A stretch of DNA of 58,424 nucleotides from Candidatus Woesearchaeota archaeon. GTDB taxonomy: Archaea; Nanobdellota; Nanobdellia; Pacearchaeales; GW2011-AR1. The notes below the pieces were generated by a model, which had not been told where the DNA came from, searched no databases, and saw only the letters and a list, made by a program, of their open reading frames with translations. The stretch is from NCBI GenBank assembly GCA_964479755.1, contig CAYZNI010000003.1, positions 1 to 58,424 on the forward strand, read 5' to 3'. A program made the position numbers and the translations under genes. Shown in pieces: positions 2,491-28,781 of the stretch (position 1 is its first letter; the number at the start of each line of letters is the position of its first letter).

Positions 2491-2546
2491 TTAATGTCTA
2501 AGTTTTTACCCTTACCTTCTTTTAAAAGATTGTTATAGAGCGATGT

Positions 2547-5137: not shown

Positions 5138-5180
5138 AATGTAGCTCGGTATATAAACTAACCGCAGAATTTGTTAACTT

Positions 5181-6233
5181 TTATCGTAATAATTCTCGAA
5201 TATTTTTGTCTTTCGAAACATTCCCTTTTGAAACAATTTCATCATATATCGCTGAAGCAATTATATTGTTTCCCTTAAAACTTGCCAGCATTCCTCCAGC
5301 GCCCGAATCATAGTTTGATTCTATATCTCCCTGCATAAATTCGCGATGCAACTCTACCAATGTAATTTTTTCTCTATTAGAAATTTCACTTAGTTTAGTT
5401 TGCGGGATAGAGCGAGTTTCAAAATCACTAAGTTGCCATTTATATGGGGGCACGACTAAAATAACAGTTATATTTCTTGCCTTTAAATCAGAAGTTAAAT
5501 TAGTAATATGTTGATCATAAAAATCTGAATTTTCTGGATTCGACCACTTTTCCATTATTTCTTGAATAAGACCGGTATTGCCAATTCCTTTATGAGCTTT
5601 GATTCTTAAAAACACCGAATAAGAAAAGACACACGAATGGCAAATATTTTTTATGAAACTTACAGTAGGAGTATCTGGCACGCCGCCTCCAGAGTCACCA
5701 TATTTGTCAAAATTCTCTTTTATTATAGTCAAGTTATCATAGTTGATATCGTTTAATGAAACTAGTATAACCGCAAAGTCTGCATCATATTTTTTTAATT
5801 CAGAAAAATATCTATTATGCTCACTAAGAATTTGGTATCCTGGAACGGCCCCATTGATAACCTCCACATTATCTTCCTTCTGTCTAAATAACTCTTCGAC
5901 TTTCTTTGGAACGCTCTCCTCAACAGGTTTATCCTGACCAAAAGAAGCAGTATCGCCAATAAAAAGTATTCTAATTTGAGAGTCATTCTTCTTATAAGAA
6001 TGCTCGTAATCCCTCAAACCCTTTGAGTTAATAATTATCGGAATATCTGAATCCGGAAAGTTTCCAGAAAAACCTGGTTTTAACGCGTAGCCAGTCTGCG
6101 AGTCATAAACAAAAATGTTGGAAGGCAATGATTCTGTAGGCATGATATAGTAAATTCTCACAATAATCTCAAAAATTAAAATAATACCAACTAGAAAAAT
6201 CAAAACTAGATTAATCCTTCGCATATTTTTCAC
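5181..6233 (-). CDS. Divergent SGNH-like membrane-anchored protein (GDT instead of GDS)
   Basis: N-terminal TM. 'ILFIGDTASFG' in the block I position and 'GAVPGY' block II/III-like. No clear DxxH. Overlaps the carbamoyltransferase 3' end by 23 nt. Confidence 0.5.
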   Translation of the reverse strand: MKNMRRINLVLIFLVGIILIFEIIVRIYYIMPTESLPSNIFVYDSQTGYALKPGFSGNFPDSDIPIIINSKGLRDYEHSYKKNDSQIRILFIGDTASFGQDKPVEESVPKKVEELFRQKEDNVEVINGAVPGYQILSEHNRYFSELKKYDADFAVILVSLNDINYDNLTIIKENFDKYGDSGGGVPDTPTVSFIKNICHSCVFSYSVFLRIKAHKGIGNTGLIQEIMEKWSNPENSDFYDQHITNLTSDLKARNITVILVVPPYKWQLSDFETRSIPQTKLSEISNREKITLVELHREFMQGDIESNYDSGAGGMLASFKGNNIIASAIYDEIVSKGNVSKDKNIRELLR

Positions 6234-7971
6234 TGTCCCAAATATCTTGAGGATTATCTTCTCTTTTGATCAAGAATCTTCCCATTGCCAAATAATCAAT
6301 TCCAGTTCCCATCATACATTTATATGCATCATAAGGTGTGCAAACAATAGGCTCTCCTCTTATATTAAAAGACGTGTTAATTAATATCGGAATCTTAGAT
6401 AATTTACCGAACTGTTTTATTAAATCGTAATAAAGATGATTCTGATTTCTTCTAATTGTCTGTAATCTTCCAGAGCCATCTACATGCGTAACCGCTGGAA
6501 TTATTAAATGATATTTTTTTCTAATAGGATAAACCATCAACATAAAATCGGTCGGCTCTGGAATTGGCAAGTCACATTCAAAATATTTTTGTGCATCCTC
6601 AACACAAACTACGGGTGCAAAGGGTCTAAACTTCTCTCTATGTTTAACTTTTAAATTAAGTATTTCTTGCATATTCTTATTGCAAGGATTTGATAGAATA
6701 CTTCTTGCTCCCAAGGCTCTTGGCCCCCATTCCATTCCAGTTTGGAACCACCCAATAACGTTATTGTTGAATATCAAGTCAGCAACTTTCATAACTGCTT
6801 CTTTGTCAGAACTAAACTGCTTATAGTTTATTTTATTGTTGTCTAAAAACTCTTTAATCTCTTTATCTGAATAGCTCGGTCCAAGATAAGGGCTATTTAG
6901 TACAAAATTTCTTTTATTGCCCAAGAGCACATTATAAATATACATGGCTGCACCGATGCAAGTCCCGCCATCTCCCGGATCTGGTTGAATCCAGATTTTC
7001 TCGAATTTAGTGTTTCGAAGTATTTTGCCGTTGTAAACGCTGTTTAATCCGACTCCGCCACCTAGAACAACATTTTTGCACTTTGTCTCTTCATATACAT
7101 GATTCAATATTTTTGTCATTATTTCCTCTGTGACAAGTTGAACAGCCGCAGCAATATCTTGGTGCCTTTGGGTAATCTCAGATTCTCCTTTTCTTATTGG
7201 CCCGCCCAATAACTGGCATAATTTTCTTGAAGGCATTCTATTCTTATAATGATAAGTAAAGTAGGACATGTCAAATCTGTAGCTCCCATCTTCTTTCAAA
7301 TCAATAGTGCGCATCAATTTTTTATAGTACTCATTTGTTTTTTTGTTCATGTTTCCATAAGGTGCTAAACCCATTACTTTATACTCTGAATTGTTCACAC
7401 TAAATCCTAAATAAGCCGTTATAGCAGAATACAGTAGTCCAATAGAAGTTGGAAATTTTATTTCTTTTGTTAGCTTAATATTATTTTCATCACCAATTCC
7501 ATAAGCAGTAGTTGTCCATTCTCCGACGCCGTCTACAGTTACTATTGCGGCTTTTTTGAAAGGACTTGGTAAAAATGAACTCGCTGCGTGCGCCATATGG
7601 TGGTCGACAAAATGTATGCCTTTTTTGTATTTTAGTTTCTTTTTCACTATCTTTACTACTCTAAGCTTTTCTCCTAGCCAAGAAGGAATATTGCCCAAAA
7701 AAACCTTATAACTTCTAGGAAATGTTTCAAGATGTTGATATAAGACTCTCTCAAGTTTCAAAACTGGTTTCTCATAAAACCCGACATGGTCCAGGTCGTT
7801 TACAGTAATTTTTTCTTTTTCTAAGCAAAAGTTTATAGCATTAATAGGAAAAGAAGTGTCGTGTTTCTTCCTTGTAAATCTTTCTTCTTGCGCCGCGGCT
7901 ACAATTTGGCCATCTTTTATAAGAGCTGCAGCAGAGTCGTGATAAAAGCAACTTATTCCTAGAATGTACAT
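6211..7971 (-). CDS. Carbamoyltransferase (NodU/CmcH family)
   Basis: Characteristic N-terminus 'MYILGISCFYHDSAAALIKDGQIVAAAQEERFTRKKHD'. 586 aa, with 'VDHHMAHAASSF' and a C-terminal 'NTSFN.RGEPIV' block. Confidence 0.9.
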   Translation of the reverse strand: MYILGISCFYHDSAAALIKDGQIVAAAQEERFTRKKHDTSFPINAINFCLEKEKITVNDLDHVGFYEKPVLKLERVLYQHLETFPRSYKVFLGNIPSWLGEKLRVVKIVKKKLKYKKGIHFVDHHMAHAASSFLPSPFKKAAIVTVDGVGEWTTTAYGIGDENNIKLTKEIKFPTSIGLLYSAITAYLGFSVNNSEYKVMGLAPYGNMNKKTNEYYKKLMRTIDLKEDGSYRFDMSYFTYHYKNRMPSRKLCQLLGGPIRKGESEITQRHQDIAAAVQLVTEEIMTKILNHVYEETKCKNVVLGGGVGLNSVYNGKILRNTKFEKIWIQPDPGDGGTCIGAAMYIYNVLLGNKRNFVLNSPYLGPSYSDKEIKEFLDNNKINYKQFSSDKEAVMKVADLIFNNNVIGWFQTGMEWGPRALGARSILSNPCNKNMQEILNLKVKHREKFRPFAPVVCVEDAQKYFECDLPIPEPTDFMLMVYPIRKKYHLIIPAVTHVDGSGRLQTIRRNQNHLYYDLIKQFGKLSKIPILINTSFNIRGEPIVCTPYDAYKCMMGTGIDYLAMGRFLIKREDNPQDIWDSEKYAKD

Positions 7972-8717: not shown

Positions 8718-9806
8718 TTAAAGAAATTTAGTTAGAATTTCCATTATTCTTTTGGCAGCGTTTCCATCTCCAAAAGGGTTTTCCCAATTATTCAATTTTG
8801 GGTAGTTGGCAATCATATGTAAAGTACATTCAAGTATTTTTTTAGGTTCTGTTCCTGCCAAAATATTAGCCTTATACTCAATAGTCTCTGGCCTCTCAGT
8901 ATTCTCTCTTACAGTAATGCAAGGGACTTTTAGAATAAAACATTCTTCCTGAACTCCTCCAGAATCAGTTAACGCAACTTTTGCATTTGCCTCCAACTGA
9001 AGAAATTCCAAAAATCCCAAGGGATCGATTAACGTTAAATTTTCTGGAAGTTCAATATTAAATTCTTTAATTTTATTTTTAGTCCTAGGGTGAATTGGGA
9101 AGATTAACGGTAAATTCAAATTAGTTTGAACCATCTTGAGCCCTTCTAAAATATTTCTTAACTTATCATCCTTATCGACATTTTCCGCCCTATGAATAGT
9201 AGCTAAGATATACTCATTTGGTTCTATCTTTAACTTTCTTAAAGCATCGCTTTTCTTATTAGCTATTTCCAAATTCTGATTTACAGTATCTACAATAGTA
9301 TTCCCAGTTAAAAATATTTTATCAGGTTCGCGACCTTCTTGATGTAAATTCTTCAAAGCATCAGGAGTAGGGGCAAAGAGAAAATCAGATACATGATCTG
9401 TAATTATTCTATTTGTTTCCTCCAGCATAGTGATATCATGACTTCTAAGACCTGCTTCATGATGGGCTACCTTTATGTTAAATTTTTTAGCCGCTAAAGT
9501 TCCAGCAAGCACAGAAATCGTATCGCCTTGAACGATTACCACGTCTGGTTTTTCTTTTTCTAAAATTTTAGATATTTCCTTAATCATTATTCCTACTTGT
9601 TTTCTATAAGGTTGTCCTCCAACTCCTAAATTATACCTACTTTTGGGCAATTCTAAGTCATCAAATATTTGTTCATCAAGCTCTTTACTATAGTGTTGTC
9701 CAGTATGTAAAATAAAAAAGTCTAACTTTCTTCTTTCACATTCTCTTATCAAAGAAGCCATCTTAATTATTTCAGGTCTTGTTCCTAAGACTATACAAAT
9801 TTTCAT
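8718..9806 (-). CDS. wecB: UDP-N-acetylglucosamine 2-epimerase (non-hydrolysing)
   Basis: 'MKICIVLGTRPEIIKMASLI', 'HTGQHY', 'DSGGVQEE'. 362 aa. Confidence 0.9.
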   Translation of the reverse strand: MKICIVLGTRPEIIKMASLIRECERRKLDFFILHTGQHYSKELDEQIFDDLELPKSRYNLGVGGQPYRKQVGIMIKEISKILEKEKPDVVIVQGDTISVLAGTLAAKKFNIKVAHHEAGLRSHDITMLEETNRIITDHVSDFLFAPTPDALKNLHQEGREPDKIFLTGNTIVDTVNQNLEIANKKSDALRKLKIEPNEYILATIHRAENVDKDDKLRNILEGLKMVQTNLNLPLIFPIHPRTKNKIKEFNIELPENLTLIDPLGFLEFLQLEANAKVALTDSGGVQEECFILKVPCITVRENTERPETIEYKANILAGTEPKKILECTLHMIANYPKLNNWENPFGDGNAAKRIMEILTKFL

Positions 9807-12913: not shown

Positions 12914-14503
12914 ATGGAAAACAAAGAGGAAGTAACTATAAACGTTCACAAAGAAAAGACAAAAAATTGGCTTAACAAAAAGGAAAACTTAGTTTTTGTT
13001 CTCTTATTCATTACTGTCGTTGTAATAAGATTCTATTTTTATACTATGACTAAAAACCAGGCCCTATGGTGGGACGAGTCAGATTATATGGCCACCGCTA
13101 AGAGTCTTGCAGGACTAGGTCATTATAATCTTGAAGCAATTAGATTACCTACCTTTTCTCTGTTTGTATCAATATTTTTTAGGTTAGGTTTAACTGAACA
13201 GACAATCAGATTTATTGTTTTATACATTTCCTCATTAATTCTGATTTACTTTTTTTATTATTTACTAAAGGAGATGTATGCTGATAAAAGAATCGCATTA
13301 ATTTCTACTTTGATATTTTCAGTTCTTTGGGAACATCTTTTTTATAGTAACCGCTTCCATACAGAAAACTTTTCTTTAATATTCCAATTTCTTTCACTCA
13401 TTGTATTAGTAAAATCTTACTTAAAAAAAGAGAAATTTTTGTTCATAAGTAGCAAATACTCTTTAGTATCTGTTATTATCTTAGCAGTAATATCGGTTTT
13501 GTTCAGACCAGGAAGCTTAATGTTCGCTGTGGGATTAGTGCTCTTTCTTATACTATTAAAAGGAGATTTAATATTTAGGAATAAGAAAAATACAACCTAT
13601 ACTTTGATTTTTTTTGCTATTCTTACCATCTTATTCTTTACATTTATAGGCAAAATTCATTCGCCCTTTGTCACGTACTATTATAACTTAGACAGACCAA
13701 TAAATTACGTCCATCTCACAGTATTCAAGGGTTACTATCAACCAATCAACCCTAGCTTACCAAATTTATTATATTACTTATTTTTATTAGGAACAGTTAT
13801 AGCATTAGCAAAGATGTTTCTGAGCTATGACAAATTTAAGAAATTAAAACCAGACAAGGAATTCTTAGAGTTTAAATCAGACTTGTTAAACTTCTTATTA
13901 ATAATCTGCTTGTTAATTTCCCTTATCTTTTTTATAAGAGCCCAAGACTACGAGTTCAGATGGTTCTTCCCCCTATTACCCGGAATGCTTGCATTTACAT
14001 CTAAAGGAATCATTGATTTCTCAAGTACCATCGGAGAAAAGCTATCAAACAAAAAAATCACAACAATTCTAATAGTAGCTTTTTCCTTGTTTGGTTTTTA
14101 CACTCAGTTAGCACATGCAAACATGATTATTAATGCAAAGGTTGATTCTTACTCACAAGTAAAAGATTCTGGGATCTGGATAAAAGAACATTCAAACAAT
14201 AACGATGTGATCGTAAGCGCTTCTGTACCACAACATTCCTATTACACAGAAAGAAAAGTTTACACCTTCGCTTTTGATAATAGTTCTAATAACACCGAAG
14301 AATACTTCAATGATAAATTAAAAGAAATAAAACCAAGGTATGTCGCAGTTTCAATATTCGAACCTGTCTTTACCCCCCAATGGGCTTATACTTGGGGCCA
14401 AAAGCATAATGAAACTGTAGTTCCAGTTAAGGTTTATTTTGCAGATCAACAACAAACGCAACCGATTCTAATAGTATACGAAATTAAAAACAAATTTATT
14501 TAG
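12914..14503 (+). CDS. GT-C fold membrane glycosyltransferase (GT39/GT83, ArnT/PMT-like)
   Basis: 529 aa and polytopic. First-loop acidic motif 'LWWDESDYMATAKSL'. C-terminal soluble domain. Confidence 0.7.
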   Translation: MENKEEVTINVHKEKTKNWLNKKENLVFVLLFITVVVIRFYFYTMTKNQALWWDESDYMATAKSLAGLGHYNLEAIRLPTFSLFVSIFFRLGLTEQTIRFIVLYISSLILIYFFYYLLKEMYADKRIALISTLIFSVLWEHLFYSNRFHTENFSLIFQFLSLIVLVKSYLKKEKFLFISSKYSLVSVIILAVISVLFRPGSLMFAVGLVLFLILLKGDLIFRNKKNTTYTLIFFAILTILFFTFIGKIHSPFVTYYYNLDRPINYVHLTVFKGYYQPINPSLPNLLYYLFLLGTVIALAKMFLSYDKFKKLKPDKEFLEFKSDLLNFLLIICLLISLIFFIRAQDYEFRWFFPLLPGMLAFTSKGIIDFSSTIGEKLSNKKITTILIVAFSLFGFYTQLAHANMIINAKVDSYSQVKDSGIWIKEHSNNNDVIVSASVPQHSYYTERKVYTFAFDNSSNNTEEYFNDKLKEIKPRYVAVSIFEPVFTPQWAYTWGQKHNETVVPVKVYFADQQQTQPILIVYEIKNKFI

Positions 14504-18050: not shown

Positions 18051-18800
18051 CTAATCTTTAGCCCCCATGCTTTTCAAATGATTTAAATTTATAAGTCTTA
18101 GCCTAATCACTCCAAGAGCCATCCATGGTCCAGCAGCCCAAAAATTAATTTTTGAATATTCTTTATCAGTCCAAATTGTAGGAATTTCCTTAATTCTGAA
18201 ACCTTTCTTTTTCATCTGGTACAATAAATCAACATCAAAAGCCCATTGCGACATTGTAATCTTATGAATAACTTCTTCAACAACCCTTCTTCTGAAAATT
18301 TTAGCACCACATTGCGTGTCCTTATATGAGAGAAATAAGATGGCCCTAATTAATGTATTAAACATCCAACGCGCCACCATTCTTCTAAATAGAGGTTTAG
18401 GAGAAACAACTGCCCCCTTAATCCACCTGCTTGCTATAACACCGTCACTATTCCCCATGCTGCTTAAAAGTTTATGGTATTCTTGGGGAGAAGTCGCCAT
18501 ATCGGCATCAACAAAACCAATTAAATCATTCTCATTTTTTAGAGACTCTTTAAAGCCCTCAATAATAGCGTACCCCTTTCCCCCCCTGACTAAATTTAAG
18601 CATTTTATACGCCTATTCTTCTTGATAAATTCCCTTACTATTTTTTGTGTGCCATCACTAGTATTGTTTATACTGACTATTACCTCATAATCTAAGACCT
18701 CCTCTACCCTTAAATTCTCAAAATATTCAGAATAAGAATTAAGTGTTCTTGTTATGCGTTTTTCTTCATTGTGGGCAGGTATCACTATAGAGATTTTCAT
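18051..18800 (-). CDS. Polyprenyl/dolichyl-phosphate glycosyltransferase (GT2, DPM1/GtrB-like)
   Basis: 'MKISIVIPAHNEEKRI', 'FVDADMATSPQE' and 'QCGAKIF'. I use the ATG at 18800 instead of the TTG at 18812. Confidence 0.8.
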   Translation of the reverse strand: MKISIVIPAHNEEKRITRTLNSYSEYFENLRVEEVLDYEVIVSINNTSDGTQKIVREFIKKNRRIKCLNLVRGGKGYAIIEGFKESLKNENDLIGFVDADMATSPQEYHKLLSSMGNSDGVIASRWIKGAVVSPKPLFRRMVARWMFNTLIRAILFLSYKDTQCGAKIFRRRVVEEVIHKITMSQWAFDVDLLYQMKKKGFRIKEIPTIWTDKEYSKINFWAAGPWMALGVIRLRLINLNHLKSMGAKD

Positions 18801-18821
18801 CACAAAAAACAAAAAAACAAA

Positions 18822-18836
18822 ATATTTTAAATATAT
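18822..18836. promoter_or_regulatory. Shared bidirectional TATA-like element between the GT2 gene and the GT-C operon
   Basis: Near-palindromic 'ATTTTAAATAT' sits in the 53-nt spacer. It lies about 30 nt from the ATG at 18854 (+) and about 34 nt from the ATG at 18800 (-). Confidence 0.4.
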
Positions 18837-18853
18837 CTATAGTTAGTTGATTC

Positions 18854-20740
18854 ATGAGTGAAGAGCCAAAGGAAGATATTTTGTCCAAACTAGTAGACAA
18901 TATTTTCTCTTTAAAAAAGGAAACAATCTACCTATTTTTAATATTTCTCTTAGGAGCTATACTAAGATTAATTGCAGCTATCAACATTCAACCAAACGCA
19001 GATGAATTACATTTTGTTACTCATGCGGTAAATTTCTATTCAACAGGAAGATTGGTTACGTTTGAACAGTCTGCAGGACTGTGGTTTGGATTTACTAGCC
19101 TGATGTATAATTTAATTGGGTATACCCAATTAGCTTCCAGAATTGCTTCAATTTTGTTCGGATCATTTAGTATTTTCTTAATTTATTTAATTTCGAAAGA
19201 ATTTTTTGATGAAAAGACTTCTTTAATAGCGGCTTTCCTTCTCTCAATAGCACCATTTCATATAAGAAGCACAGTTGCAGAAATGGATGTAATGGCTATA
19301 TTTTTTACACTTCTATTTGTTTTCTTCTCAATAAAAGCAATTAAATCGGAAAGAAATATTTATTTTGCTTTAAGTGGAATATCTATCGGGCTCGCAATTT
19401 ACACAAAGGTCTATCCAGTTTTGTTTTTGCCTTCTATTCTTCTATACTTTGCATATAATAAGTACAAATTAAAAGAAAAGATTATAACGAAAAAAAATAT
19501 TCAACTAATCTCTATTCTATTAGCTTTCACCTTGGTATTTTGCCTACCAGAATTAATTTACAACTATTCTCTCTACCAAGAAAAAGGTTTTTTGGACTTG
19601 CAATTTACTAAATTCTTAAGATTAGGAGAAGATAAAGCCGCACAGTATTATTCTTGGTTAGGAAATTGGAATGAAAGTGCTGCATGGTCTGCCTTCTTGA
19701 TTCCGAAGACAAACAAAATAGATTCTTCTGGATATCCGTTAAGTATAGTGGTCTTAAAACAACTACAAGCTGTAACACCCTTTATTTTCTATACTAGTTT
19801 GTTAAGTCTCTTGCTTTTGGTTTTAAAGAAAAATTCTCTAGTTAAAGAATATTCCAAGCTATTCATTCTCTTGATACTTTTTGCTTTTCCTTTTTTAGCA
19901 AGCTCAATAGCCTTAGTTAAGCATTTTCTATTTTTTGAATTATTTATGATTCCTTTGACAGGTTCCTTATTAGTGAGTTTTATTAATCGTTCTAAAAATA
20001 AAAATCTAACAACTATTTTCTTCATAACCTTGTTTTGCATCTCTTTATTCTTATTAAGCAGACCCACGACAGTATTTATTCAAGTTTTCGGTATGGGAAG
20101 AACTGCTCAAATTATAGACTTTAGAGATAAAGCGATAAACAACATAGATCTCATAGTTTCGGATGGCAGAATTTATAGGGGCGAAACTTTCTGGGGCTTT
20201 TATGGAAAACCGTTTTTAGAAGCTACTGTCTTTCTTCAGTTAATGAATGACCAAAGCAAGTTACCGGGGAAAAATATTACAGAACAAGTCTACTTTGTTG
20301 AATGCGTATACGATGATTGCGGTTGGGGCACTATAAAAGATCAGCCAGAATTTAATGCCTCAATGGAGTCTTTAACAGACTTTTTCAAAAAGAATGGTCA
20401 ATTAGTTGACACAATCTACGAACCTAACAGAGAAAATCCTTATTTACCTCCCTTATATGGAAAAAAGGCAGAAGCAGTAAGAATATACAAATTGGCTCTT
20501 CCAATGAAATCTTCAATTGTTGAATTCGCGGCTCAACCAAAAAACTGGTTTATGTATGATATCGGATATGAACCTAAAGAAAAACAATTTGATTATTACT
20601 ATCCAACTACTTTTTTTCAATATCTTCTGGATTTGTTGGCGCATTTAATTGTTAAATTGTCGCTGATTTTGGCAATTATTTCACCTCTTACAATTCTTTA
20701 TTTAATAATAGACAACAATGATAAAACAACAGAAATTTAG
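18854..20740 (+). CDS. GT-C fold membrane glycosyltransferase (GT39/ArnT/PMT_2-like)
   Basis: 628 aa with more than 10 TM helices. First-loop 'NADELHFVTHAVNF' acidic motif and a soluble domain near the C-terminus. Confidence 0.75.
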   Translation: MSEEPKEDILSKLVDNIFSLKKETIYLFLIFLLGAILRLIAAINIQPNADELHFVTHAVNFYSTGRLVTFEQSAGLWFGFTSLMYNLIGYTQLASRIASILFGSFSIFLIYLISKEFFDEKTSLIAAFLLSIAPFHIRSTVAEMDVMAIFFTLLFVFFSIKAIKSERNIYFALSGISIGLAIYTKVYPVLFLPSILLYFAYNKYKLKEKIITKKNIQLISILLAFTLVFCLPELIYNYSLYQEKGFLDLQFTKFLRLGEDKAAQYYSWLGNWNESAAWSAFLIPKTNKIDSSGYPLSIVVLKQLQAVTPFIFYTSLLSLLLLVLKKNSLVKEYSKLFILLILFAFPFLASSIALVKHFLFFELFMIPLTGSLLVSFINRSKNKNLTTIFFITLFCISLFLLSRPTTVFIQVFGMGRTAQIIDFRDKAINNIDLIVSDGRIYRGETFWGFYGKPFLEATVFLQLMNDQSKLPGKNITEQVYFVECVYDDCGWGTIKDQPEFNASMESLTDFFKKNGQLVDTIYEPNRENPYLPPLYGKKAEAVRIYKLALPMKSSIVEFAAQPKNWFMYDIGYEPKEKQFDYYYPTTFFQYLLDLLAHLIVKLSLILAIISPLTILYLIIDNNDKTTEI

Positions 20741-21155
20741 GGAAATATTGGAAAATAAATCTAAAAAAACATCAAATCAGTTCTTTAAATATTTTTTTGC
20801 AGGAGGAATTGCTGCTATACTAGATATTTCGTCTTTTATGCTTTTTACATCAGTGTTACTTATAGATTACAGAATATCTCTCTTTTTCAGTTTTACTTTT
20901 GGAACTCTTACCAACTTCTTATTATGTAATAAGTATATTTTTAGCCGAGGAGAAATGTCAGTGATAAAAACAATGATTAGACACTATACTTCAAGTTTAG
21001 GAGGGCTGGCCACAAATGAGATAGTAGCAATTATTTTAGTTGAAATTTTGAATTTTAAATCTTTATTTATCGTTAAGATAATAGCAACTATATTTGCATT
21101 TATAATAAACTTTATATTAATCAAGTTTTATGCCTTTAACAGTAAAATAAAGTAA
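20718..21155 (+). CDS. GtrA-family polyprenyl-phosphate-sugar translocation protein
   Basis: 145 aa with 4 TM helices. 'FFKYFFAGGIAAILDISSF' is the GtrA N-terminal signature. Overlaps the GT-C gene by 23 nt. Confidence 0.85.
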   Translation: MIKQQKFREILENKSKKTSNQFFKYFFAGGIAAILDISSFMLFTSVLLIDYRISLFFSFTFGTLTNFLLCNKYIFSRGEMSVIKTMIRHYTSSLGGLATNEIVAIILVEILNFKSLFIVKIIATIFAFIINFILIKFYAFNSKIK

Positions 21156-21157
21156 AT

Positions 21158-22204
21158 ATGGCAATTAAAAGCAATATTTTAATTACAGGAGGCTCTGGAT
21201 TCTTTGGGTCTTTGTTAAAGGAAGACCTTCTTAGAAGGAGATACAATTGTGTGAATATTGATTTAGAAAGGGACTCATTTAAACATAAAAATCTTATTTC
21301 TATTCAAGGTGATATTCGAAATAAAAATCTTCTTCTAGAGGTTTTTTCGAAAAATAAATTCAGTGCCATTTATCACTGCGCAGCAATTTTAGCTCACGCA
21401 GTTAAGGATAAAAATTTTCTATGGACTTCAAACGTAAATGGGACGAGGAACATTGCGGATTTTGCTAAGGAATTTGGAGTAAAAAAAGTAGTATTTACGT
21501 CTTCAAATTGTCTTTGGGGCAATCCCTTCAATAGACTTGTTTCGGAAGAAGATCTTCCTAACCCTGTGGAGATTTATGGAAGGTCAAAATTAGAAGGAGA
21601 AAAAATATTAATGAGCAATAAAAAATATTTTAATGCAGTGATTATAAGATGTCCTACAATTATGGATGAAGGTAGGCTGGGGCTATTAGCTATACTTTTT
21701 GACTTCATCGATGAAGGAAAAAAGGTTTGGGTAGTGGGAAACGGTGAAAATAAATATCAATTTATTTATGCCAAAGATTTAATTGATGCATGCATAAAGT
21801 CTCTTAACTACAACAAATCAGAAATATTCAATATCGGATCAGACAATGTTAAAAGTTTCAAAGAGGTTTATAATAATGTCCTTAAAAAAGCAAAAACCGG
21901 TTCCAAAATAGGATATTTACCCAAAAGTCCTGCGATTTTATTAATGAAATTAGCGCATCACTTTAAGATCTCCCCTTTAGGCCCATATCAATATAAAATG
22001 ATAGCGGAAAGTTTTGTTTTTGATACCTCAAAAATCAAGCGAGAATTAAAATGGAGTCCGACCTTGACAAATGACGAGATGCTTTATAAGGCATATTTAT
22101 ATTATCATAACAATAAGGCTGATATCTTATCAAGAAAAAACGTTTCGGCACATAAAAAACAAGCAGATATGGGGATTATAAGAATATTGAGGTGGGTTTC
22201 ATAA
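21158..22204 (+). CDS. NAD-dependent epimerase/dehydratase (extended SDR)
   Basis: '[14 protein letters not shown]' and 'YGRSKLEGE' (YxxxK). Starts 2 nt after the gtrA stop. Confidence 0.8.
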
Positions 22205-23772
22205 TGAGAAATAAAATTGCACTGGTTATAGGGGCAGGTCCTGCTGGGTTAACAGCCGCCTATGAACTTTTAGAAAAAACAAAAGTAAAACCAATTGTAA
22301 TTGAAAAAAGTACATTCATGGGAGGTATTGCTAGAACCATAAATTACAAGGGAAATAGAATAGATATAGGAGGCCACAGATTTTTTTCTAAGTCTGATAG
22401 AGTAATGAAATGGTGGTTAACAATGTTGCCCTTACAGAAAGTGCAAAACCCACAAGAAAAAATAGCTTATCAAGGGCAGACACGCGATTTAGGTTTTAAG
22501 GGAAATGCAGATCCAAATAAGACGGATAAAGTTATGCTCTTACGTCCTAGAAAGTCAAGAATTTATTATACAAGAAAGTTTTTTGATTATCCAATTACAT
22601 TATCTAAAAGGACTTTAGAAAACTTAGGCTCATTTAAAGCTGCAAATATTGGCTTTAGCTATATGAAGAGCACTCTTTTCCCAATTAAACCAGAAATAAC
22701 CTTAGAAGATTTCTTTATAAATAGGTTCGGAAAAGAGCTTTATCTTACTTTTTTTAAATCATATACAGAAAAAGTCTGGGGCGTTCCATGTAATGAAATA
22801 AGCGCAGAGTGGGGCGCGCAGAGAGTTAAAGGATTATCTATTTCTAAGGCTATATTGCATTATTTAAAAAAATGGAAAGTTAAGGAAGGAGATGTTTCTC
22901 AAAAAGATACTGAAACTTCTTTGATTGAGCAGTTTTTATATCCAAAATTCGGACCTGGTCAAATGTGGGAGGCGGTTGCAAAAAAAGTTGAAAATAACGG
23001 AGGCAAAATAATAACTGAATCTGTCGTCGACGGAATCACCCTTAATGGAAATAAAATACAATCTATAAGTTTTCTTAATATAAGAACAAAAAAGAGAGTA
23101 AAAGTAAAAACCGATTTTGTTTTTTCAACTATGCCTATAAAAGAGTTGATCAAGTCTATGAAACCTCAAGTCCCTGGGGAAATAAAAAAAATATCCGAAG
23201 GCTTAATTTATAGAGATTTTATAACAGTTGGATTATTACTAAAAAAAATAAAGATAAAAGAATCTGACAATACTTTAGTCAAGGACAATTGGATCTACAT
23301 TCAAGAAGATGATGTTAAAGTTGGGAGATTACAGATTTTCAACAATTGGAGTCCCTATTTAGTTGAAAATCGCAACAATGTTTGGATAGGTTTAGAATAC
23401 TTTTGTAATGAGGGTGATGAACTTTGGACCAAACCTGAGGAAGAAATGAAAAAACTGGCAGTGCATGAATTACAGAAGATTGGAATAATAGATTCAAAAG
23501 ATGTGCTAGACTCAACCGTTATTAAAATGGAAAAAACTTATCCGGCGTATTTTGGGGAATACAAAAATTTCTCCAAAATAAGAGCGCACCTGGATAAAAT
23601 TGAAAATCTTTTTTTAATAGGAAGAAATGGAATGCACCGTTATAATAATCAAGATCATTCTATGTTAACAGCAATGACTTCAGTAGAGAATATAATAAAT
23701 GGAGTAAAATCAAAAGATAATATTTGGGCAGTGAACGCCGAGCAGGAATATCACGAAGAAAAATCTTCTTAA
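22204..23772 (+). CDS. Rossmann-type FAD-dependent oxidoreductase (amine-oxidase/UGM/protoporphyrinogen-oxidase-like)
   Basis: '[18 protein letters not shown]...[12 protein letters not shown]' dinucleotide fold and 'DIGGHRFF'. TAATG overlap with the SDR stop. Confidence 0.75.
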
Positions 23773-23773
23773 T

Positions 23774-24988
23774 TTATTTAAATAAAATAGAGATAATCAA
23801 GAAAATCAAAGATAAAATCGTAACCCCAAAGGAAAAGTTGGTTAAATTCAACACAAACATCCCAGTAGACAAATAAAAGGCAGCCAGCAGAACTAAGACA
23901 AGACTAAAGAACAATCTCGGACGCTTTATTTTATCTAAGGATAACTTTCTTATTAATATTAAATTTGTGATTGAAAGCATTGTAATACTAACACCTAAAT
24001 AAAATAAAGCCTTACTATCTTCTGTAAGTGATTTTCCACTAAAAATTCCTAAGACAAATTCGGGGTAGAAATAGAAAATACCGAGAGCTATTAAGTCTAG
24101 TACTAAAACAGTTACAAATGCGTTTAGAAAAACGTTCTTCGATTTCTTTTTTCCTTTATTATTTTCTACAGCAATGGGAAACATAACTTTACTGACAGGT
24201 TGAGTTACAAGAAAAATCATCTTTGCACAAAGAGAAGCAATTGCATAAGTTCCAGCTATTTCAGAAGAAAAAACAAGTTTCGCGAATATTATATCGAATC
24301 CATAAAAAATTAAAATCGTCAAGACAATAAAAAAAGTCGGCTTGCTATAAGAGTATATTCCTCTAGTTTCTCCTATTTTTTCTTTCGATCGAGTGTACTC
24401 TTTTAATCCAATAAAAGTTAAATAAAACGCAATAGCTCCCGCCAAAAAGGTAGCTAGTATAGCTCCAAATACATTCCACCCAAGGTAGACAAAAAACACC
24501 GCTAATAAAAACTTCGCGATAGATTCAGATATCATATTAATTCCAAGAGCCCCAAATTTTTTCTTTCCTTGTAAAACACCTCTATTAATCGGCATAAGAA
24601 AAATATTGAATATAATTAACCCAGTAAATGCAACAAGAAAATAATTTATCTTAGTTAATTTAGAAATAAAAATAGCGGCAATTAAAAAAAAGAGAAATAG
24701 ACCGAGGCAAAAAGATAAAGACTTTCTAAGTGCCCTTTTAATTATATTCTTAATCTTTCCAGGCTCTTTCTCATTTGCAGCAAACTTAGTTATCGTCATT
24801 TGAATAGATTCAGAAAAACCTCCAAGAATGTATATCATATTATTAAGAAAGGCAAGAACTCCGAAATCTGATAAACTAAGAAGTCTAGCCATGCTTGACT
24901 GAAATAAAAAGTTAAACAAGTTGTAAATTCCAAAAGAAACTAATAGAATCGCGCTTCCTTTCACCAGCTCTTTTTCTAATTTCATCAA
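23774..24988 (-). CDS. Oligosaccharide flippase (MOP/Wzx-like)
   Basis: 404 aa with about 12 TM helices. Sits directly downstream of aglH with a 4-nt overlap. Confidence 0.6.
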   Translation of the reverse strand: MMKLEKELVKGSAILLVSFGIYNLFNFLFQSSMARLLSLSDFGVLAFLNNMIYILGGFSESIQMTITKFAANEKEPGKIKNIIKRALRKSLSFCLGLFLFFLIAAIFISKLTKINYFLVAFTGLIIFNIFLMPINRGVLQGKKKFGALGINMISESIAKFLLAVFFVYLGWNVFGAILATFLAGAIAFYLTFIGLKEYTRSKEKIGETRGIYSYSKPTFFIVLTILIFYGFDIIFAKLVFSSEIAGTYAIASLCAKMIFLVTQPVSKVMFPIAVENNKGKKKSKNVFLNAFVTVLVLDLIALGIFYFYPEFVLGIFSGKSLTEDSKALFYLGVSITMLSITNLILIRKLSLDKIKRPRLFFSLVLVLLAAFYLSTGMFVLNLTNFSFGVTILSLIFLIISILFK

Positions 24989-25995
24989 AAACCTCGTCTA
25001 AATATCAAAAGCCCAATCAATATTATCAGAATCTGAAAAGTCCAAATTGAAATAACTACTCTGCTTTCAGTTGGCTTTACTCCAATTTTTTTCATTAAAC
25101 ATATTGACAAGTGGTTTACGCTGTAAATTTTGTCATATCTCAATTCCAAACTTCCATCTTTCTGTGGCAGTCCGAAACTTTGCATTTTTACATCACCACG
25201 AAGTTTTAAGATGCTCTCTAAAGCATATGGTATGAAAAAGAAAACTGCAATCTTTTCAAAATTCCCAAGAATCGCCATGCAAGCAGCTAGTCCTCCTACA
25301 GTATAAGTTAAACTATCTCCGGGAAAAACTCTTGCTGGATTGAAATTAAAAATTATGAAAGCGCAAAGTGCGGCAATCATACAAAGCCCAATCAAAGTCA
25401 GCCAGGTATCTCCAAGCATATAAGCGACTAATGAAAAACCTGACAAAACGATTATTCCTTGCCCAGCTTCCAGCCCATTAAAACCTGCTAAAATGTTGAA
25501 AGTTGTCGCTGCTCCCACAATACCTATCGGAATTATCACTAATGGATACCAAAGTCCGAGATCAATTCCTCCAAAAAACGGCAAAATTACAGAACTCCTT
25601 CCAGCGTTTATAACGATTAACGGAATTGCAGCAAAAAGCTCCAATATAATTCTCGACTTCTTAGACAAACCTCCCTTTCTCCAGCCTAATAAGTCATCAA
25701 TAAATCCAACTGTAGCTAAAAGTAAAATACAACTTAATAATGCAAAAATTTCCACAAGATTTCCATCCTTAGAATTAAATAAAAAAACTTTGTATGAAAC
25801 ATATAGCAAAACTCCGATTACAAACCCTAATACGGCTATTATTCCGCCAGACCCTGAAACAAAATACTTCTTGTATTTGTTCATGTCTTCCCAAACTAGC
25901 CCGATTTGTTTAGCCTTTTTAATCCAAGAAGGAAGCAATGCTAGTGTCGTCAAAAAACTTGCAATTATCGGAATCAGCAATATGTAAATCTTCAT
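24985..25995 (-). CDS. aglH: UDP-GlcNAc:dolichyl-phosphate GlcNAc-1-phosphate transferase (MraY/WecA/ALG7 family)
   Basis: 'GFIDDLLGW' and 'FNILAGFNGLEAGQG' motifs. Polytopic. 1-nt overlap with aglB. Confidence 0.8.
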   Translation of the reverse strand: MKIYILLIPIIASFLTTLALLPSWIKKAKQIGLVWEDMNKYKKYFVSGSGGIIAVLGFVIGVLLYVSYKVFLFNSKDGNLVEIFALLSCILLLATVGFIDDLLGWRKGGLSKKSRIILELFAAIPLIVINAGRSSVILPFFGGIDLGLWYPLVIIPIGIVGAATTFNILAGFNGLEAGQGIIVLSGFSLVAYMLGDTWLTLIGLCMIAALCAFIIFNFNPARVFPGDSLTYTVGGLAACMAILGNFEKIAVFFFIPYALESILKLRGDVKMQSFGLPQKDGSLELRYDKIYSVNHLSICLMKKIGVKPTESRVVISIWTFQILIILIGLLIFRRGF

Positions 25996-28781
25996 TATGC
26001 GTACAATATATCTGCAGGGTACTCCGTGCTGATATACTTTTTGTCATATTTAATATCCTTAGGATATTTAATTTCCCAAATTCTAATAGGCCCTCGAAGT
26101 CCTTGGTAGTAAACGAAATCACTATCAAATGTTGGATTTTGCTCTTTAATTTGCGCAACTACGATGTCGTCTTCAGAATGAGCAAGTTTGAAATATTTAT
26201 CGTCTTTTTTGTACAAATAAAGTCTTGAAAGTTGCGAATTAACTACTCTTCTGCTTAGGTAAAGCATTGCACCATCTCTCTCAATTCCGACTCCCTGTTG
26301 AGTTTGGTCAACTCTAGGGAAAAGGAAGACTCCCGCTTCCAACCCTTTACCAAAGTCCCTTAACTTTCCATCATACAAGTATCTAAGCGGAATGCTATAT
26401 TGTTGCCCATTGGCAACAAAAATTCCAATAGGCGCGGAAATTATCTGAGCGGTTGAGTTTCTCTCTATCAGAACTGCAGCCAGGCCATTGCCAGAGCCAG
26501 TAGGAATATAAATTTTGCTTCCATTCTCTTCATAAACTATATCCTCATCAAGTCCAACTCCTGCTTTATACATAAACACTGTAGAGTTCTTTTTCTCTTG
26601 AGAGTAAGTAGTGTCTCTCAGAAATGTTGGAATAAAGCTAGCTCTATCATAATGTGCATCGCTTCCAATGCTTGAAAAGGCACCATACTTTCCAATGTCG
26701 GTAGAGTCAATTAAAAAGTGAGTTGTATTATGAGCATATAAAAATTCCAAAGCTTCGGTTTCATTTGGCCCGGTTAGAGCAAACCTGCCCATCATATGAT
26801 TCCAATATGAAATCGCGTTTCCCCCATCCAAGACAGTTGCCCTTTCACCAATACTCTGAAGCCAATAACCATAGTCCCACCAATGTCCAAACACCGCATT
26901 TTTCGGAGTTTCTTCCCTCACCCAAGCCATAGCCTTCTGCCATTGCTGTGTGTAAACTGAAGGAACATAGCTTTTTCCTGTAGCCAAGGACTCTTGATAA
27001 AATGAATTTCCGGCATAAATAGCAGATAAAACAACTATTGCAAATAGACCAAGAACAGCAAATTTAACATTTTTATCTTTGACTTCCTTAGAATACCTGT
27101 AAATCTTAAAAATGCAATATCCAATTAAAATAGAAACGCTTGGAACAAGAACCATAATGGTCCTAACAGCAGCCCTGGATGAAACTATCCCAAGAAGATA
27201 AAAGAAAAAGAAGCAAAGCAGCCCGAAATCAATTTTATTTAATTTTTCTTTGCCTTTGTTGTCATATTCAAAATAGTAATATCCAAAAACCAAAACAAAT
27301 ACAATTATTCCTCCAAACAAGAAAGCTTTGCTTGCAAAATTTTCTCCATTGAACAAGCTGTCAGGAGAGTACCTGCTAAATACAAGAGCAAGCAACATAA
27401 AGGCAAATGCCAACGTTAATTTTGTTTTGTCTTTTCTGTTAAACTCTTTTAATGAGGAATAAAACAATCCGATTGAACCGGCAATCATCAGCCAGAAAGT
27501 TATTAAAAATCCTTTGAAGTTAGGTCCAAAACTTCCAGCCCATTCGCCAAAATAAGGCTGTCTATTTTCTGCAACCGTTTGAATCAGTCTAGAAGTCGCA
27601 GGTTTAATTAAAGTGTCGTAAACGCTTTTCAAGTTAGATAAAACAAAGGAAGGCCCAAAAAAGACTAAAGCCCCGACTAAACTAATTATTACCGCAAAAC
27701 AAACAACAATAAGTTTCTTAGGAACTTTTTCAAGTTTATTAAACTCTGTGTATTTTCCTAACTTAGTATTACTGATTAAATAGTCTAATGCAAAAACAAA
27801 TAAAATAAAAATTGTGAGCGCGCCTGCCTGATCTGTTATTATGTTTTTAACAGTGTACTTATAGAAAATAGAGAGAGCAATAAAAAAAGTTAAACCAAAC
27901 CAGACAAAATAAGAAAGCATTCTTTTTTTGTCATATTGCTCAAATAAAAAAGCAACAATAACAGCCGGAAGAATTGTAAAGAAGATATACAGTTTACCTC
28001 CCCAAATATGCATCATTGCAGCAGTAGAAATACCTGCCAATGCCGAAAAAACAAGTCCTGAATAAGATTTATTTCTTCTAAAAGCCGCAATAAATAAGTA
28101 AATTGATAAAAATATAAACAAAAATCCTACTGACTCTTTTTCAGGAATGCCCGCAATTGTTCTGGGCAACAGTGGTGGAAAAACTGCCAAGAAAAATGAA
28201 GCAATTAAAGCGATAAAGTTCGCATTTTTACTTCCTTCAACTTTCACAAAAATCTCCCTAGTTAAAAGAAAAAAAGCAATAATTGTAAGTGCAAACATAA
28301 AAACAGGGTAAATAATCGCAGAGTAAGTTACCGAGTCTGACATCCCAAAAAATCCGAGTATCTTATGAAACCAAGCAATCATATAAGGATGAAGCAAATA
28401 CTCTCTCTCCTGATGAAACCCTAAGGGAACGTACCTCATCACATCAGGCTCTTCCAGAATGCCGTGTGCAACAATGTCTTTCGCCCATCTCAAAAATAAA
28501 AATGGATCTAGGTCAGGACCTAATGTCCAATCATTCGTAGTTACATCTTTCAGGCCAGGAACAGGCAGCATTCTTATTTGAACAGCAAGATAAATAATGA
28601 ATGCGAGCACAATTAAAGAAATAAATAAATTGTTTTTCTTAAAAAACGCGACTATTTTCTCTTTTCTAATCTCAATTAGTTGATCTTCTGCACTTATTTC
28701 TGCTTTTTTTTCAGTGTGCTCGTGCTGTTCAGCATGTTTTTGAGCATCTTCCTGTTCTGCCATTTGCGAATAAAACAGCAT
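25995..28781 (-). CDS. aglB: Dolichyl-(mono/di)phosphooligosaccharide-protein glycotransferase AglB (STT3 family)
   Basis: 928 aa with 13-TM-type N-domain. 'HWWDYGYW' is encoded at 26862-26885, and a DxxK-like 'DIGK' lies downstream. The start could be the second Met (28763). Confidence 0.92.
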   Translation of the reverse strand: MLFYSQMAEQEDAQKHAEQHEHTEKKAEISAEDQLIEIRKEKIVAFFKKNNLFISLIVLAFIIYLAVQIRMLPVPGLKDVTTNDWTLGPDLDPFLFLRWAKDIVAHGILEEPDVMRYVPLGFHQEREYLLHPYMIAWFHKILGFFGMSDSVTYSAIIYPVFMFALTIIAFFLLTREIFVKVEGSKNANFIALIASFFLAVFPPLLPRTIAGIPEKESVGFLFIFLSIYLFIAAFRRNKSYSGLVFSALAGISTAAMMHIWGGKLYIFFTILPAVIVAFLFEQYDKKRMLSYFVWFGLTFFIALSIFYKYTVKNIITDQAGALTIFILFVFALDYLISNTKLGKYTEFNKLEKVPKKLIVVCFAVIISLVGALVFFGPSFVLSNLKSVYDTLIKPATSRLIQTVAENRQPYFGEWAGSFGPNFKGFLITFWLMIAGSIGLFYSSLKEFNRKDKTKLTLAFAFMLLALVFSRYSPDSLFNGENFASKAFLFGGIIVFVLVFGYYYFEYDNKGKEKLNKIDFGLLCFFFFYLLGIVSSRAAVRTIMVLVPSVSILIGYCIFKIYRYSKEVKDKNVKFAVLGLFAIVVLSAIYAGNSFYQESLATGKSYVPSVYTQQWQKAMAWVREETPKNAVFGHWWDYGYWLQSIGERATVLDGGNAISYWNHMMGRFALTGPNETEALEFLYAHNTTHFLIDSTDIGKYGAFSSIGSDAHYDRASFIPTFLRDTTYSQEKKNSTVFMYKAGVGLDEDIVYEENGSKIYIPTGSGNGLAAVLIERNSTAQIISAPIGIFVANGQQYSIPLRYLYDGKLRDFGKGLEAGVFLFPRVDQTQQGVGIERDGAMLYLSRRVVNSQLSRLYLYKKDDKYFKLAHSEDDIVVAQIKEQNPTFDSDFVYYQGLRGPIRIWEIKYPKDIKYDKKYISTEYPADILYA

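Follow-up and report, generated by a model that had tools for sequence, protein, structure and literature searches.

The DNA analyzed here, referred to below as the window, is the whole 58,424-nucleotide stretch of contig CAYZNI010000003.1 (positions 1 to 58,424, forward strand) in the assembly GCA_964479755.1 of a Candidatus Woesearchaeota archaeon, and our subject is a group of five genes within it that may constitute a furanose-transferring branch of a glycosylation system. On the minus strand, positions 18051-18800 encode a GT2-family glycosyltransferase (GT) resembling DPM1/DPMS, a probable dolichyl-phosphate sugar synthase of 249 amino acids when read from its ATG (PF00535, 1.7e-23) or 253 when read from an alternative TTG start at 18812. 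Across a divergent spacer of 53 nucleotides (18801-18853) lie four plus-strand genes. They encode a GT-C glycosyltransferase of 628 amino acids (18854-20740; PMT_2 4e-19, STT3 1e-7), a small GtrA-family membrane protein of 145 amino acids (20718-21155; PF04138 9e-15, matched over the full model length), an extended short-chain dehydrogenase/reductase (SDR) of 348 amino acids (21158-22204; PF01370 2e-39), and a flavoprotein of 522 amino acids (22204-23772; NAD_binding_8 4e-12, Amino_oxidase 1e-13) that resembles UDP-galactopyranose mutase (UGM) and belongs to NCBIfam family PRK07208.1-2. Transmembrane segments, estimated by scanning hydropathy windows, number approximately 9 or more in the GT-C and 4 in GtrA, with none in the GT2, the SDR, or the flavoprotein. 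Our check of the open reading frames and our Pfam profile searches returned the same five genes, sizes, and families that an earlier note, made from the sequence alone, had assigned here.

Re-reading the junctions also confirmed the spacing given in that note. The GT-C and GtrA genes overlap by 23 nucleotides, a gap of 2 nucleotides lies between GtrA and the SDR, and the SDR and flavoprotein genes overlap by 1 nucleotide within the sequence TAATG, with a Shine-Dalgarno-like GAGGTG motif 9 nucleotides upstream of the flavoprotein ATG. GtrA is translationally coupled to both of its neighbors, the GT-C and the SDR, and these junctions uphold the proposal that the plus-strand genes form a single translationally coupled unit, which ends 1 nucleotide from the stop codon of a convergent gene for a Wzx-type flippase. 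The TATA-like element that had been described in the spacer is present, TTTAAATA at 18826-18833 within an AT palindrome, 20 nucleotides ahead of the GT-C ATG. This octamer occurs at chance level in the AT-rich window (25 observed against 21.8 expected), so that its position is what points to the spacer as a probable bidirectional archaeal promoter. An Rfam scan of the window returned no match.

The identity of the flavoprotein is central to any interpretation of this locus. It scores 840 bits against the NCBIfam model NF005546 (PRK07208.1-2, labeled "hypothetical protein"), for which the cut-off is 418, and its best sequence matches in the PDB are the eukaryote-type UGMs of Trypanosoma cruzi (4dsg, 3e-15) and Aspergillus fumigatus (1e-13), followed by bacterial UGMs. 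A profile built from 34 members of the family improves the match to the A. fumigatus enzyme (AfUGM) to 2e-20. Sequence identity to the eukaryote-type enzymes is just 18-19%, and the TIGR00031 UDP-GALP_mutase model, which was built on bacterial-type UGMs, is matched well short of its cut-off (38.8 bits versus 303.75) and in its C-terminal part only. An AF2/AlphaFold model of the protein (pLDDT 82.6, pTM 0.84) searched against the PDB with Foldseek returned UGMs from T. cruzi and A. fumigatus as all of its first 34 matches (E 2e-27, TM-scores 0.71/0.79). Structures of protoporphyrinogen oxidase (PPOX) rank after these at 1e-21 with similar TM-scores, and the fold by itself is not decisive. An identity as PPOX or phytoene desaturase was considered and rejected: these proteins are about as similar in structure, but they score far lower by sequence, and the flavoprotein carries the catalytic set of UGM.

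It is the active site that speaks most directly to the reaction. Twenty active-site residues of AfUGM are listed in Table 2 of van Straaten et al. (PMC3322874), and we mapped their positions by hand from pairwise HMMER/HMM alignments, so that the correspondences do not depend on a structural superposition. In total 18 residues are kept, 16 of them identical and 2 equivalent. The identical residues are H63 (H58 in the window protein), F66 (F61), F158 (F183), Y162 (Y187), W167 (W192), the essential R182 (R207), the eukaryote-specific W315 (W363) and Y317 (Y365), the essential R327 (R375), whose R327A variant is inactive, E373 (E398), Y419 (Y446), R447 (R474), Y453 (Y480), N457 (N482), Q458 (Q483), and Y104 (Y129), which stacks on the uracil and stands outside the 20 of Table 2. 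The equivalent pair comprises M159 (F184) and N163 (T188), the latter being Thr in bacterial UGMs. These kept residues are invariant across the family and in 35 homologs linked to SDR genes, which include a 475-amino-acid subfamily at just 41% identity; Q483, which varies among homologs, is excepted. R91 maps ambiguously, to R119 or a Lys, and Q107, which forms a hydrogen bond to uracil in AfUGM, is not kept. The P206/N207 loop beside the galactose C4 hydroxyl corresponds to L240/I241, invariantly Leu/Ile across the family, and an insertion of approximately 25 amino acids relative to UGM lies around residues 90-115.

The Pfam matches of the flavoprotein are limited to Amino_oxidase, NAD_binding_8, and other Rossmann FAD families, with no VAO/FAD_binding_4 or ALO domain. 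Because the UGM active-site residues are kept and a VAO-type domain is absent, the protein has the catalytic apparatus of a non-redox mutase. Sequence, fold, and active-site map together make it probable that this is a UGM-type pyranose/furanose mutase, which was the alternative offered in the earlier note; the oxidase resembling DprE1 that the note preferred is not what sequence, fold, or active site indicate, and in the structural comparison that it had proposed UGM ranks first and PPOX second.

The flavoprotein family is large and widespread, with matches at E up to 1e-30 in 1,569 representative clusters, and members from Woesearchaeota, bacteria of the Candidate Phyla Radiation (CPR), Acidobacteriota, Bacteroidota, Planctomycetota, and cyanobacteria are 60-67% identical. 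The family goes under the label "hypothetical protein" at NCBI and "protoporphyrinogen oxidase" at JGI. When loci were anchored on this protein in 79 GTDB genomes it was nearly always found without GtrA, a GT-C, or the SDR of the present locus, and family-specific HMMs run on these loci recovered GtrA in 1 of 79 and an SDR of the family found here in none. On plasmids of Methylomagnum and Gloeothece, more distant members show translational coupling to Leloir GT-A/GT2 genes, and the family also occurs in fusions (records P0377, P0453, P0391, P0378, and P0379/P0394/P0411/P0445/P0464): with a GT4 (970 amino acids), with a UXS-like SDR carrying a STSEVYG motif in Sphingomonadales (802 amino acids), with a methyltransferase (794 amino acids), with C-terminal stretches of 500-1300 amino acids giving no Pfam match, and with GtrA (679 amino acids and 59% identical, with no fewer than 7 full-length members found in several independent samples). 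The links to glycosyltransferases and UXS would fit an enzyme acting on a nucleotide sugar. The substrate might be a UDP-pentose, as hinted by the UXS fusion and by UGDH and UXS neighbors in a few loci, where UXS-like and UGDH-like genes near the pair are a weak signal (4 of 79 and 3 of 84 loci). Side observations on the family include a Chitinophaga oryziterrae contig (NZ_WRXO01000012.1, locus L046) with three paralogs in approximately 8 kb, each at about E 1e-207 to the query, and B12-binding radical SAM genes, which recur both in the glycosylation islands of DPANN relatives and beside the flavoprotein in a Woesearchaeota contig (L171, L174, L087, L001).

The SDR belongs to a family with a mean column identity of 74%, with homologs that are 63-72% identical in Parcubacteria, Bacteroidota, Endomicrobia, Melainabacteria, Firmicutes, Verrucomicrobiota, and Altiarchaeia. 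Its members are annotated as "UDP-glucose 4-epimerase". The catalytic residues are S115, Y140, and K144, and the Thr-x-Glu motif of dehydratases is not present. Where GalE-type enzymes have Arg-Asp (GDGxxxRDYxxV), this family has an invariant Tyr200-Gln201. A C-terminal tail (residues 326-348) is conserved to the final residue (S330, H332, G339, I341, W346, S348) and is modeled with low confidence (pLDDT 59-70). This tail may dock on a partner protein; it was not among the top amphipathic windows in a hydrophobic-moment scan, which leaves membrane binding by the tail unsupported. The structures nearest to the SDR model are nucleotide-diphosphate (NDP)-sugar 4-epimerases and dehydratases (TM-scores 0.73/0.81, approximately 22% identity), and Pfam searches gave no adh_short match. 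These features describe a distinct and strongly conserved family, probably an NAD-dependent epimerase or reductase of a furanose sugar.

The genomic surroundings of this family were examined in 84 SDR-anchored loci, 80 from metagenomes and 4 others, with the metagenome genes called by a simple greedy longest-ORF method and with the 80-locus samples biased by identity to the query. In 24 loci the flank on each side was 6.5 kb or longer, and there the genes within 6.5 kb of the SDR included the flavoprotein in 13, in varying order and orientation, GtrA in 11, and GT-C in 7. A Pfam census of 122 distinct immediate neighbors is led by GtrA (22), the flavoprotein or Amino_oxidase (20), and PMT_2 (10), with every other family at 4 or fewer. 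Many of the neighbors without a Pfam match are proteins of 470-680 amino acids with 7-13 predicted transmembrane segments, drawn from several unrelated families. If a polytopic neighbor is defined by at least 400 amino acids and at least 7 such segments, then, among the 42 non-redundant loci whose two flanks each reach 2 kb or more, 34 place the SDR directly beside GtrA (10), the flavoprotein (11), or a polytopic protein (26). SDR and GtrA neighbors often share an overlapping stop and start, across phyla. Among 129 further genes within 5 kb of SDR and flavoprotein pairs, the most frequent were extra NDP-sugar SDRs (11), PMT_2 (10), and GT2 (7).

Taken alone, the flavoprotein-anchored scan would have led us to conclude that the quartet of GT-C, GtrA, SDR, and flavoprotein is not conserved elsewhere; the SDR-anchored scan reversed this picture. 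A conserved neighborhood, for which the earlier note had proposed a check, is seen in the surroundings of the SDR and is not seen in the 79 flavoprotein-anchored genomes. Fusions of SDR with flavoprotein or of GtrA with SDR were not seen among the metagenome loci; an apparent one in locus L099 proved to be an over-extended reading frame in a different frame. We also observed that in nine loci, L099 among them, the downstream gene overlaps the SDR stop by exactly 12 nucleotides, with partners that vary from polytopic membrane proteins of several families to GtrA and others.

A more distant relative of the SDR is found in rhizobia, where it is 36% identical, full-length, and retains the KYQF and SPLGPY motifs. 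The homolog is carried on symbiosis plasmids, in Sinorhizobium fredii NGR234 on pNGR234a beside nodS (locus L178, 299521-314549) and in Mesorhizobium japonicum on pMLa (L179). There the SDR heads an operon that continues with a pair of SMR flippase genes and a GMC flavoprotein, convergent with genes for a 658-amino-acid "hypothetical protein" with 10 transmembrane segments, a second SDR, and a HAD-UbiA fusion. The architecture of this unannotated cluster is that of the characterized three-component pentofuranose systems, which depend on phosphoribosyl pyrophosphate (PRPP). Among NCBIfam families, the rhizobial SDR has its best full-length matches in the lipid SDRs HpnA and OleD. Because the sequence features, the membrane-protein neighbors, and the rhizobial cluster point the same way when taken together, a lipid-linked furanose is the most likely substrate of the window SDR, with a UDP-sugar standing as the alternative. 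The suggestion in the earlier note that this enzyme acts on a lipid-linked sugar has thus been made plausible by genomic context.

The remaining two members of the group have a different history. The best solved relatives of the GT2 are polyprenyl-phosphate glycosyltransferases, PfDPMS (5mlz, 1.4e-12), ArnC (1.4e-7), and GtrB (1.4e-5), with all NCBIfam matches far below their cut-offs. These relationships support the idea, also put forward in the earlier note, of a three-component logic like that of GtrA/GtrB/GtrC, which we consider likely. The GT-C additionally matches Agl23 (TIGR03663, 6e-11) and has just 122 homologs, every named one from Pacearchaeota or Nanoarchaeota, so that the family appears to be specific to DPANN archaea. 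A sequence search of the PDB found no solved relative. The acidic D50 in the first outside loop is invariant across 80 homologs, and an outside domain of approximately 180 amino acids is present. Within the outside C-terminal domain, residues 483-492 form an invariant E483-C484-x-x-D487-D488-C489-G-W-G motif, possibly a disulfide or metal site. GtrA, the first gene of what we call the trio (GtrA, SDR, and flavoprotein), is a putative flippase or escort for a lipid-linked sugar.

Comparison with related genomes separates the trio from these two glycosyltransferases. Five related DPANN archaea (L171, L172, L173, L175/176, and L177) carry the GT2 on the minus strand divergent from the GT-C on the plus strand without the trio. 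In these, the GT-C is followed by a second small GT2 of 232-244 amino acids, co-oriented with and overlapping the GT-C in 4 of 5 and on the opposite strand in L173. Next come minus-strand genes for Wzx, GT4 (missing in L173), and AglB, then a minus-strand SpoIIM in L171-L173, where the locus extends. The window has the same downstream genes, a Wzx-type flippase (23774-24988), a GT4 phosphosugar transferase (24985-25995), and an AglB/STT3 oligosaccharyltransferase (25995-28781), all on the minus strand and identified with Pfam and NCBIfam, and identities between window proteins and the L171-L173 orthologs are 53-58% for the GT2, 50% for the GT-C, 56% for Wzx, 65% for GT4, and 56% for AglB. The trio fills the exact slot of the second small GT2, with coupling to the GT-C retained. 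The locus is a mosaic in which the divergent GT2 and GT-C belong to a DPANN N-glycosylation backbone (GT2, GT-C, Wzx, GT4, AglB) and the trio is an accessory, cross-domain cassette, one that has spread horizontally and here replaced the second small GT2. The tight five-gene module of the earlier note does not survive this comparison, as the five relatives have the divergent pair without the trio and the flavoprotein nearly always stands without GtrA, a GT-C, or the family SDR in the 79 genomes.

The association between the trio and a GT-C is itself recurrent rather than a single accident, since other loci repeat the pairing. L087, L088, L091, and L092 encode a more distant family member, a GT-C at 36% identity, followed by GtrA and SDR genes with a convergent gene for a 475-amino-acid flavoprotein, and the window GtrA is 56% identical to that of L087. 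Other gene orders that include a GT-C occur in L095 and L100.

If these parts work together, the window could encode an extracytoplasmic, three-component furanose branch within an archaeal N-glycosylation island, a model to which we give about even odds as a whole and in which we infer every biochemical step, the sugar's identity, and the level at which the SDR acts. The UGM-like flavoprotein, with its FAD reduced, would contract the ring of a UDP-sugar, either galactose-like or a UDP-pentose, to the furanose form. The DPMS-like GT2 would load this sugar onto dolichyl phosphate, and the SDR, using bound NAD, would re-epimerize or reduce the sugar at one position by way of a keto form, most likely on the lipid-linked furanose. 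GtrA would then move the dolichyl-phosphate furanose across the membrane, where the GT-C would transfer it to an acceptor on the outside, probably an N-glycan installed by AglB or an S-layer protein.

Several points weigh against this model. In relatives, the orthologs of the window's GT2 and GT-C function in the absence of the trio, and their donor sugar may be unrelated to a furanose. Near the trio, GT2 genes occur with no more than moderate frequency (the 7 of 129 given above), and there is thus no dedicated, conserved enzyme for converting a UDP-furanose to a dolichyl-phosphate furanose. The sugar-adjacent positions corresponding to 206/207 differ from those of UGM, and the substrate of the flavoprotein may differ with them. 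Its fusion with GtrA would be odd for a purely soluble UDP-sugar enzyme. The fold of the modeled SDR is nearest to NDP-sugar epimerases, and it could be a plain UDP-sugar 4-epimerase acting upstream of the mutase. The literature searched offers no biochemistry for any member of the PRK07208 flavoprotein or SDR families, and within the limited library available no paper was found on PRK07208, on lipid-linked galactofuranose, or on this cassette, searches on UGM with GtrA in archaea and on UGM in DPANN or CPR organisms included.

A simpler arrangement, which we regard as unlikely though the strongest of the competing explanations, is that the SDR and mutase do nothing more than make a UDP-furanose for the island's cytoplasmic Leloir glycosyltransferases (its other GT2 and GT4 enzymes) building the lipid-linked N-glycan, while the GT2, GtrA, and GT-C form an ordinary side-branch system for a dolichyl-phosphate hexopyranose, the two sets being adjacent through the general clustering of glycan genes. 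The flavoprotein's usual occurrence without GtrA, GT-C, or the family SDR (GtrA in 1 of 79, SDR in 0), its adjacency to or fusion with Leloir enzymes, the five relatives with the divergent pair alone, and the epimerase-like SDR fold would all be expected if this were so. It sits poorly, however, with GtrA being the commonest gene directly beside the SDR in diverse phyla, where the stop of one often overlaps the start of the other, with a large polytopic membrane protein adjoining the SDR in 62% of loci, with the existence of flavoprotein-GtrA fusions, and with the coupling of GtrA to both the GT-C and the SDR in the window. Those same fusions, found in several independent samples, suit instead an improbable scheme in which the GT2 makes a dolichyl-phosphate hexopyranose and the flavoprotein, working alongside GtrA at the membrane, contracts the ring of the sugar while it is linked to the lipid, before the SDR epimerizes and the GT-C transfers it. 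Such a scheme would also accommodate the displacement of a small GT2 by a trio that usually has no GT2 of its own, the loss of the uracil-bonding Gln107, and the mostly aromatic residues retained in the "uridine pocket" (F183, F184, Y187, W192, Y129), which could bind an isoprenoid. We know of no mutase acting at the lipid level in this way, and the fusions to a UXS-like UDP-sugar enzyme and GT4, the coupling to Leloir glycosyltransferases, the bacterial-UGM Thr (Thr188) at the AfUGM N163 position, and the invariance of both diphosphate-positioning Arg and of the three phosphate-binding Tyr all count against the scheme.

The reading preferred in the earlier note, that the flavoprotein oxidizes a hydroxyl of a dolichyl-phosphate sugar to a ketone, which the SDR then reduces with inversion before GtrA and the GT-C act, in the manner of DprE1 and DprE2, now seems very improbable. 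Its appeal lies in a parts list that parallels Rv3789-dprE1-dprE2-aftA of Mycobacterium tuberculosis, and the rhizobial clusters, in which an SDR of the same family precedes two SMR flippase genes and a gene for a GMC flavoprotein within a PRPP/UbiA setting, show that a set of SDR, flippase, and flavoprotein exists with a flavoprotein of another fold. In the window, however, the VAO/FAD_binding_4 or ALO domain expected of such an oxidase is missing from a flavoprotein that keeps the non-redox UGM set (the His loop and the equivalents of R182, R327, R447, Y419, Y453, and N457), the SDR has the extended GalE fold with no adh_short match rather than the classical DprE2 type, and the scanned reading frames of the window include no UbiA/PPPRS gene.

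Returning to the mutase-fed furanose branch, a broader proposal, which we advance tentatively and at somewhat less than even odds, is that GtrA, SDR, and flavoprotein form an autonomous, horizontally mobile cassette, distributed through DPANN archaea as well as CPR and many other bacterial phyla, that makes a polyprenyl- or dolichyl-phosphate furanose from a UDP-sugar. It would be a second, PRPP-independent entry to the lipid-linked furanose donors used by GT-C enzymes and the first in archaea. In the boldest form of this proposal the flavoprotein would contract the ring on a lipid-linked sugar, or hand its flavin-bound sugar straight to the lipid phosphate, which would explain both the flavoprotein-GtrA fusions and the missing dedicated GT2.

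Other parts of the window contain further genes of glycan metabolism. Positions 54-6233 encode an O-acylation-type set consisting of a DltB-like MBOAT (TIGR04091, 1e-47), a DltD-like protein, a BioF/Kbl-like PLP acyltransferase, and two GDSL esterases. Between 6211 and 15212 are a carbamoyltransferase (6211-7971), a UDP-GlcNAc 2-epimerase (8718-9806), a GT4-family glycosyltransferase, a GT9, two methyltransferases, one of which is FkbM-type, and a 529-amino-acid protein (12914-14503) with approximately 7 transmembrane segments and no Pfam or NCBIfam match. An 803-amino-acid protein at 36448-38859 matches S_layer_C (PF05124) and is a plausible acceptor of the island's glycans. The window also encodes an archaeal-type HemK2, which, with AglB/STT3, the S_layer_C protein, and a GT-C whose named homologs all come from Pacearchaeota or Nanoarchaeota, makes a DPANN host very probable.

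To our knowledge, lipid-linked furanose donors have so far been known only via the PRPP route. That route supplies the decaprenyl-phosphate arabinose of mycobacteria, which is a drug target, the arabinosylation of Pseudomonas pilin, and the ribofuranose and xylofuranose side chains of O-antigens. If the proposal made here is correct, a route through a UDP-sugar and a mutase would add a new class of donor, and with it hexofuranoses, to extracytoplasmic glycosylation, and would extend it to the N-glycans and S-layers of archaea. It would also provide a testable function for the flavoprotein and SDR families, neither of which has a characterized member, and would correct thousands of annotations. 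The swap of a cassette within a conserved DPANN backbone shows how host-dependent archaea vary their surface.

The known systems that share parts with this locus each differ from it in a specific way. The mycobacterial arabinan pathway of Rv3789 (GtrA-like), DprE1, DprE2, and AftA begins from PRPP-derived ribose and employs a VAO-type oxidase and a classical SDR. Like that pathway, the window has adjacent genes for a flavoprotein, an SDR, and a protein of the GtrA family and would provide a GT-C with a lipid-linked furanose donor; unlike it, the window has a UGM-type mutase in place of the oxidase and an extended SDR in place of the classical one, and its sugar would not be PRPP-derived ribose. 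Pairs of an SDR and a UGM homolog are familiar from nucleotide-furanose synthesis, as in GalE with Glf and in Fcf1 with Fcf2, the latter for dTDP-fucofuranose in E. coli O52, and the window likewise encodes an SDR and a probable flavin mutase together. In those pairs the SDRs are canonical NDP-sugar enzymes, whereas the window SDR is from a family without the GalE Arg-Asp, with an extra conserved tail, and with links to GtrA and polytopic proteins. The flavoprotein itself resembles the eukaryote-type UGMs of A. fumigatus and T. cruzi (EC 5.4.99.9) in fold (TM-scores 0.71-0.79) and in its GGH loop and catalytic residues, and differs in belonging to a separate NCBIfam family, PRK07208.

A closer functional parallel is found in the pentofuranose systems of Citrobacter youngae O1 and O2, which consist of a PRP-PPPRS (ORF15), a MATE flippase, a GT-C (ORF12/GT136), and an SDR epimerase (ORF13) (Kelly et al. 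2024, PMC11127046). The GalE-like ORF13 of C. youngae O2 converts undecaprenyl-phosphate ribofuranose to the xylofuranose donor, and action at the level of the lipid has been proposed (PMC11127046). The genes of the window predict the same combination of a lipid-linked furanose donor, a flippase, an outside-acting GT-C, and an auxiliary GalE-like SDR that alters the identity of the furanose, and the rhizobial cluster holding the 36%-identical homolog of the window SDR matches that architecture as well. Unlike the Citrobacter systems, the window's scanned reading frames include no UbiA/PRPP synthase or HAD phosphatase, and none of the top neighbor families of the 79 and 84 related loci is UbiA-like, the distant rhizobial branch being the only one to have such a gene. 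Its furanose would instead come from a UDP-sugar by way of a flavin mutase, with a GT2 to load it onto the lipid. GtrA stands in for the MATE flippase, the GT-C is PMT_2-like and DPANN-specific, and the host is an archaeon with dolichol. The locus thus shares the logic of the pentofuranose systems (flippase, GT-C, and SDR) and is no member of the PRPP-based class, as the defining synthase is absent.

Among archaea, the nearest precedent is the AglD/AglR/AglS system of Haloferax volcanii, a three-component step acting on dolichyl-phosphate mannose as a branch of N-glycosylation (PMC3871713). The earlier note knew of no characterized archaeal system of this kind and had missed this prior art (PMC3871713), as well as the bacterial pentofuranose systems with their GalE-like epimerase published in 2024; what stands of its claim is that the furanose variant is uncharacterized and new for archaea. 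A 2024 review of archaeal N-glycosylation mentions neither furanoses nor AglS. As in AglD/AglR/AglS and in the GtrA/GtrB/GtrC systems of phages and enterobacteria, a GT2 in the window would charge a lipid phosphate, a flippase would carry the product across, and a membrane transferase would add it to an exported glycan, and the window genes adjoin AglB, Wzx, and GT4. In those systems, in contrast, the sugars are pyranoses that come straight from nucleotide sugars, neither a mutase nor an SDR takes part, and AglR is Wzx-like rather than a GtrA. Set beside all of these, the locus would be a PRPP-independent, mutase-fed variant of three-component furanosylation that is new for archaea.

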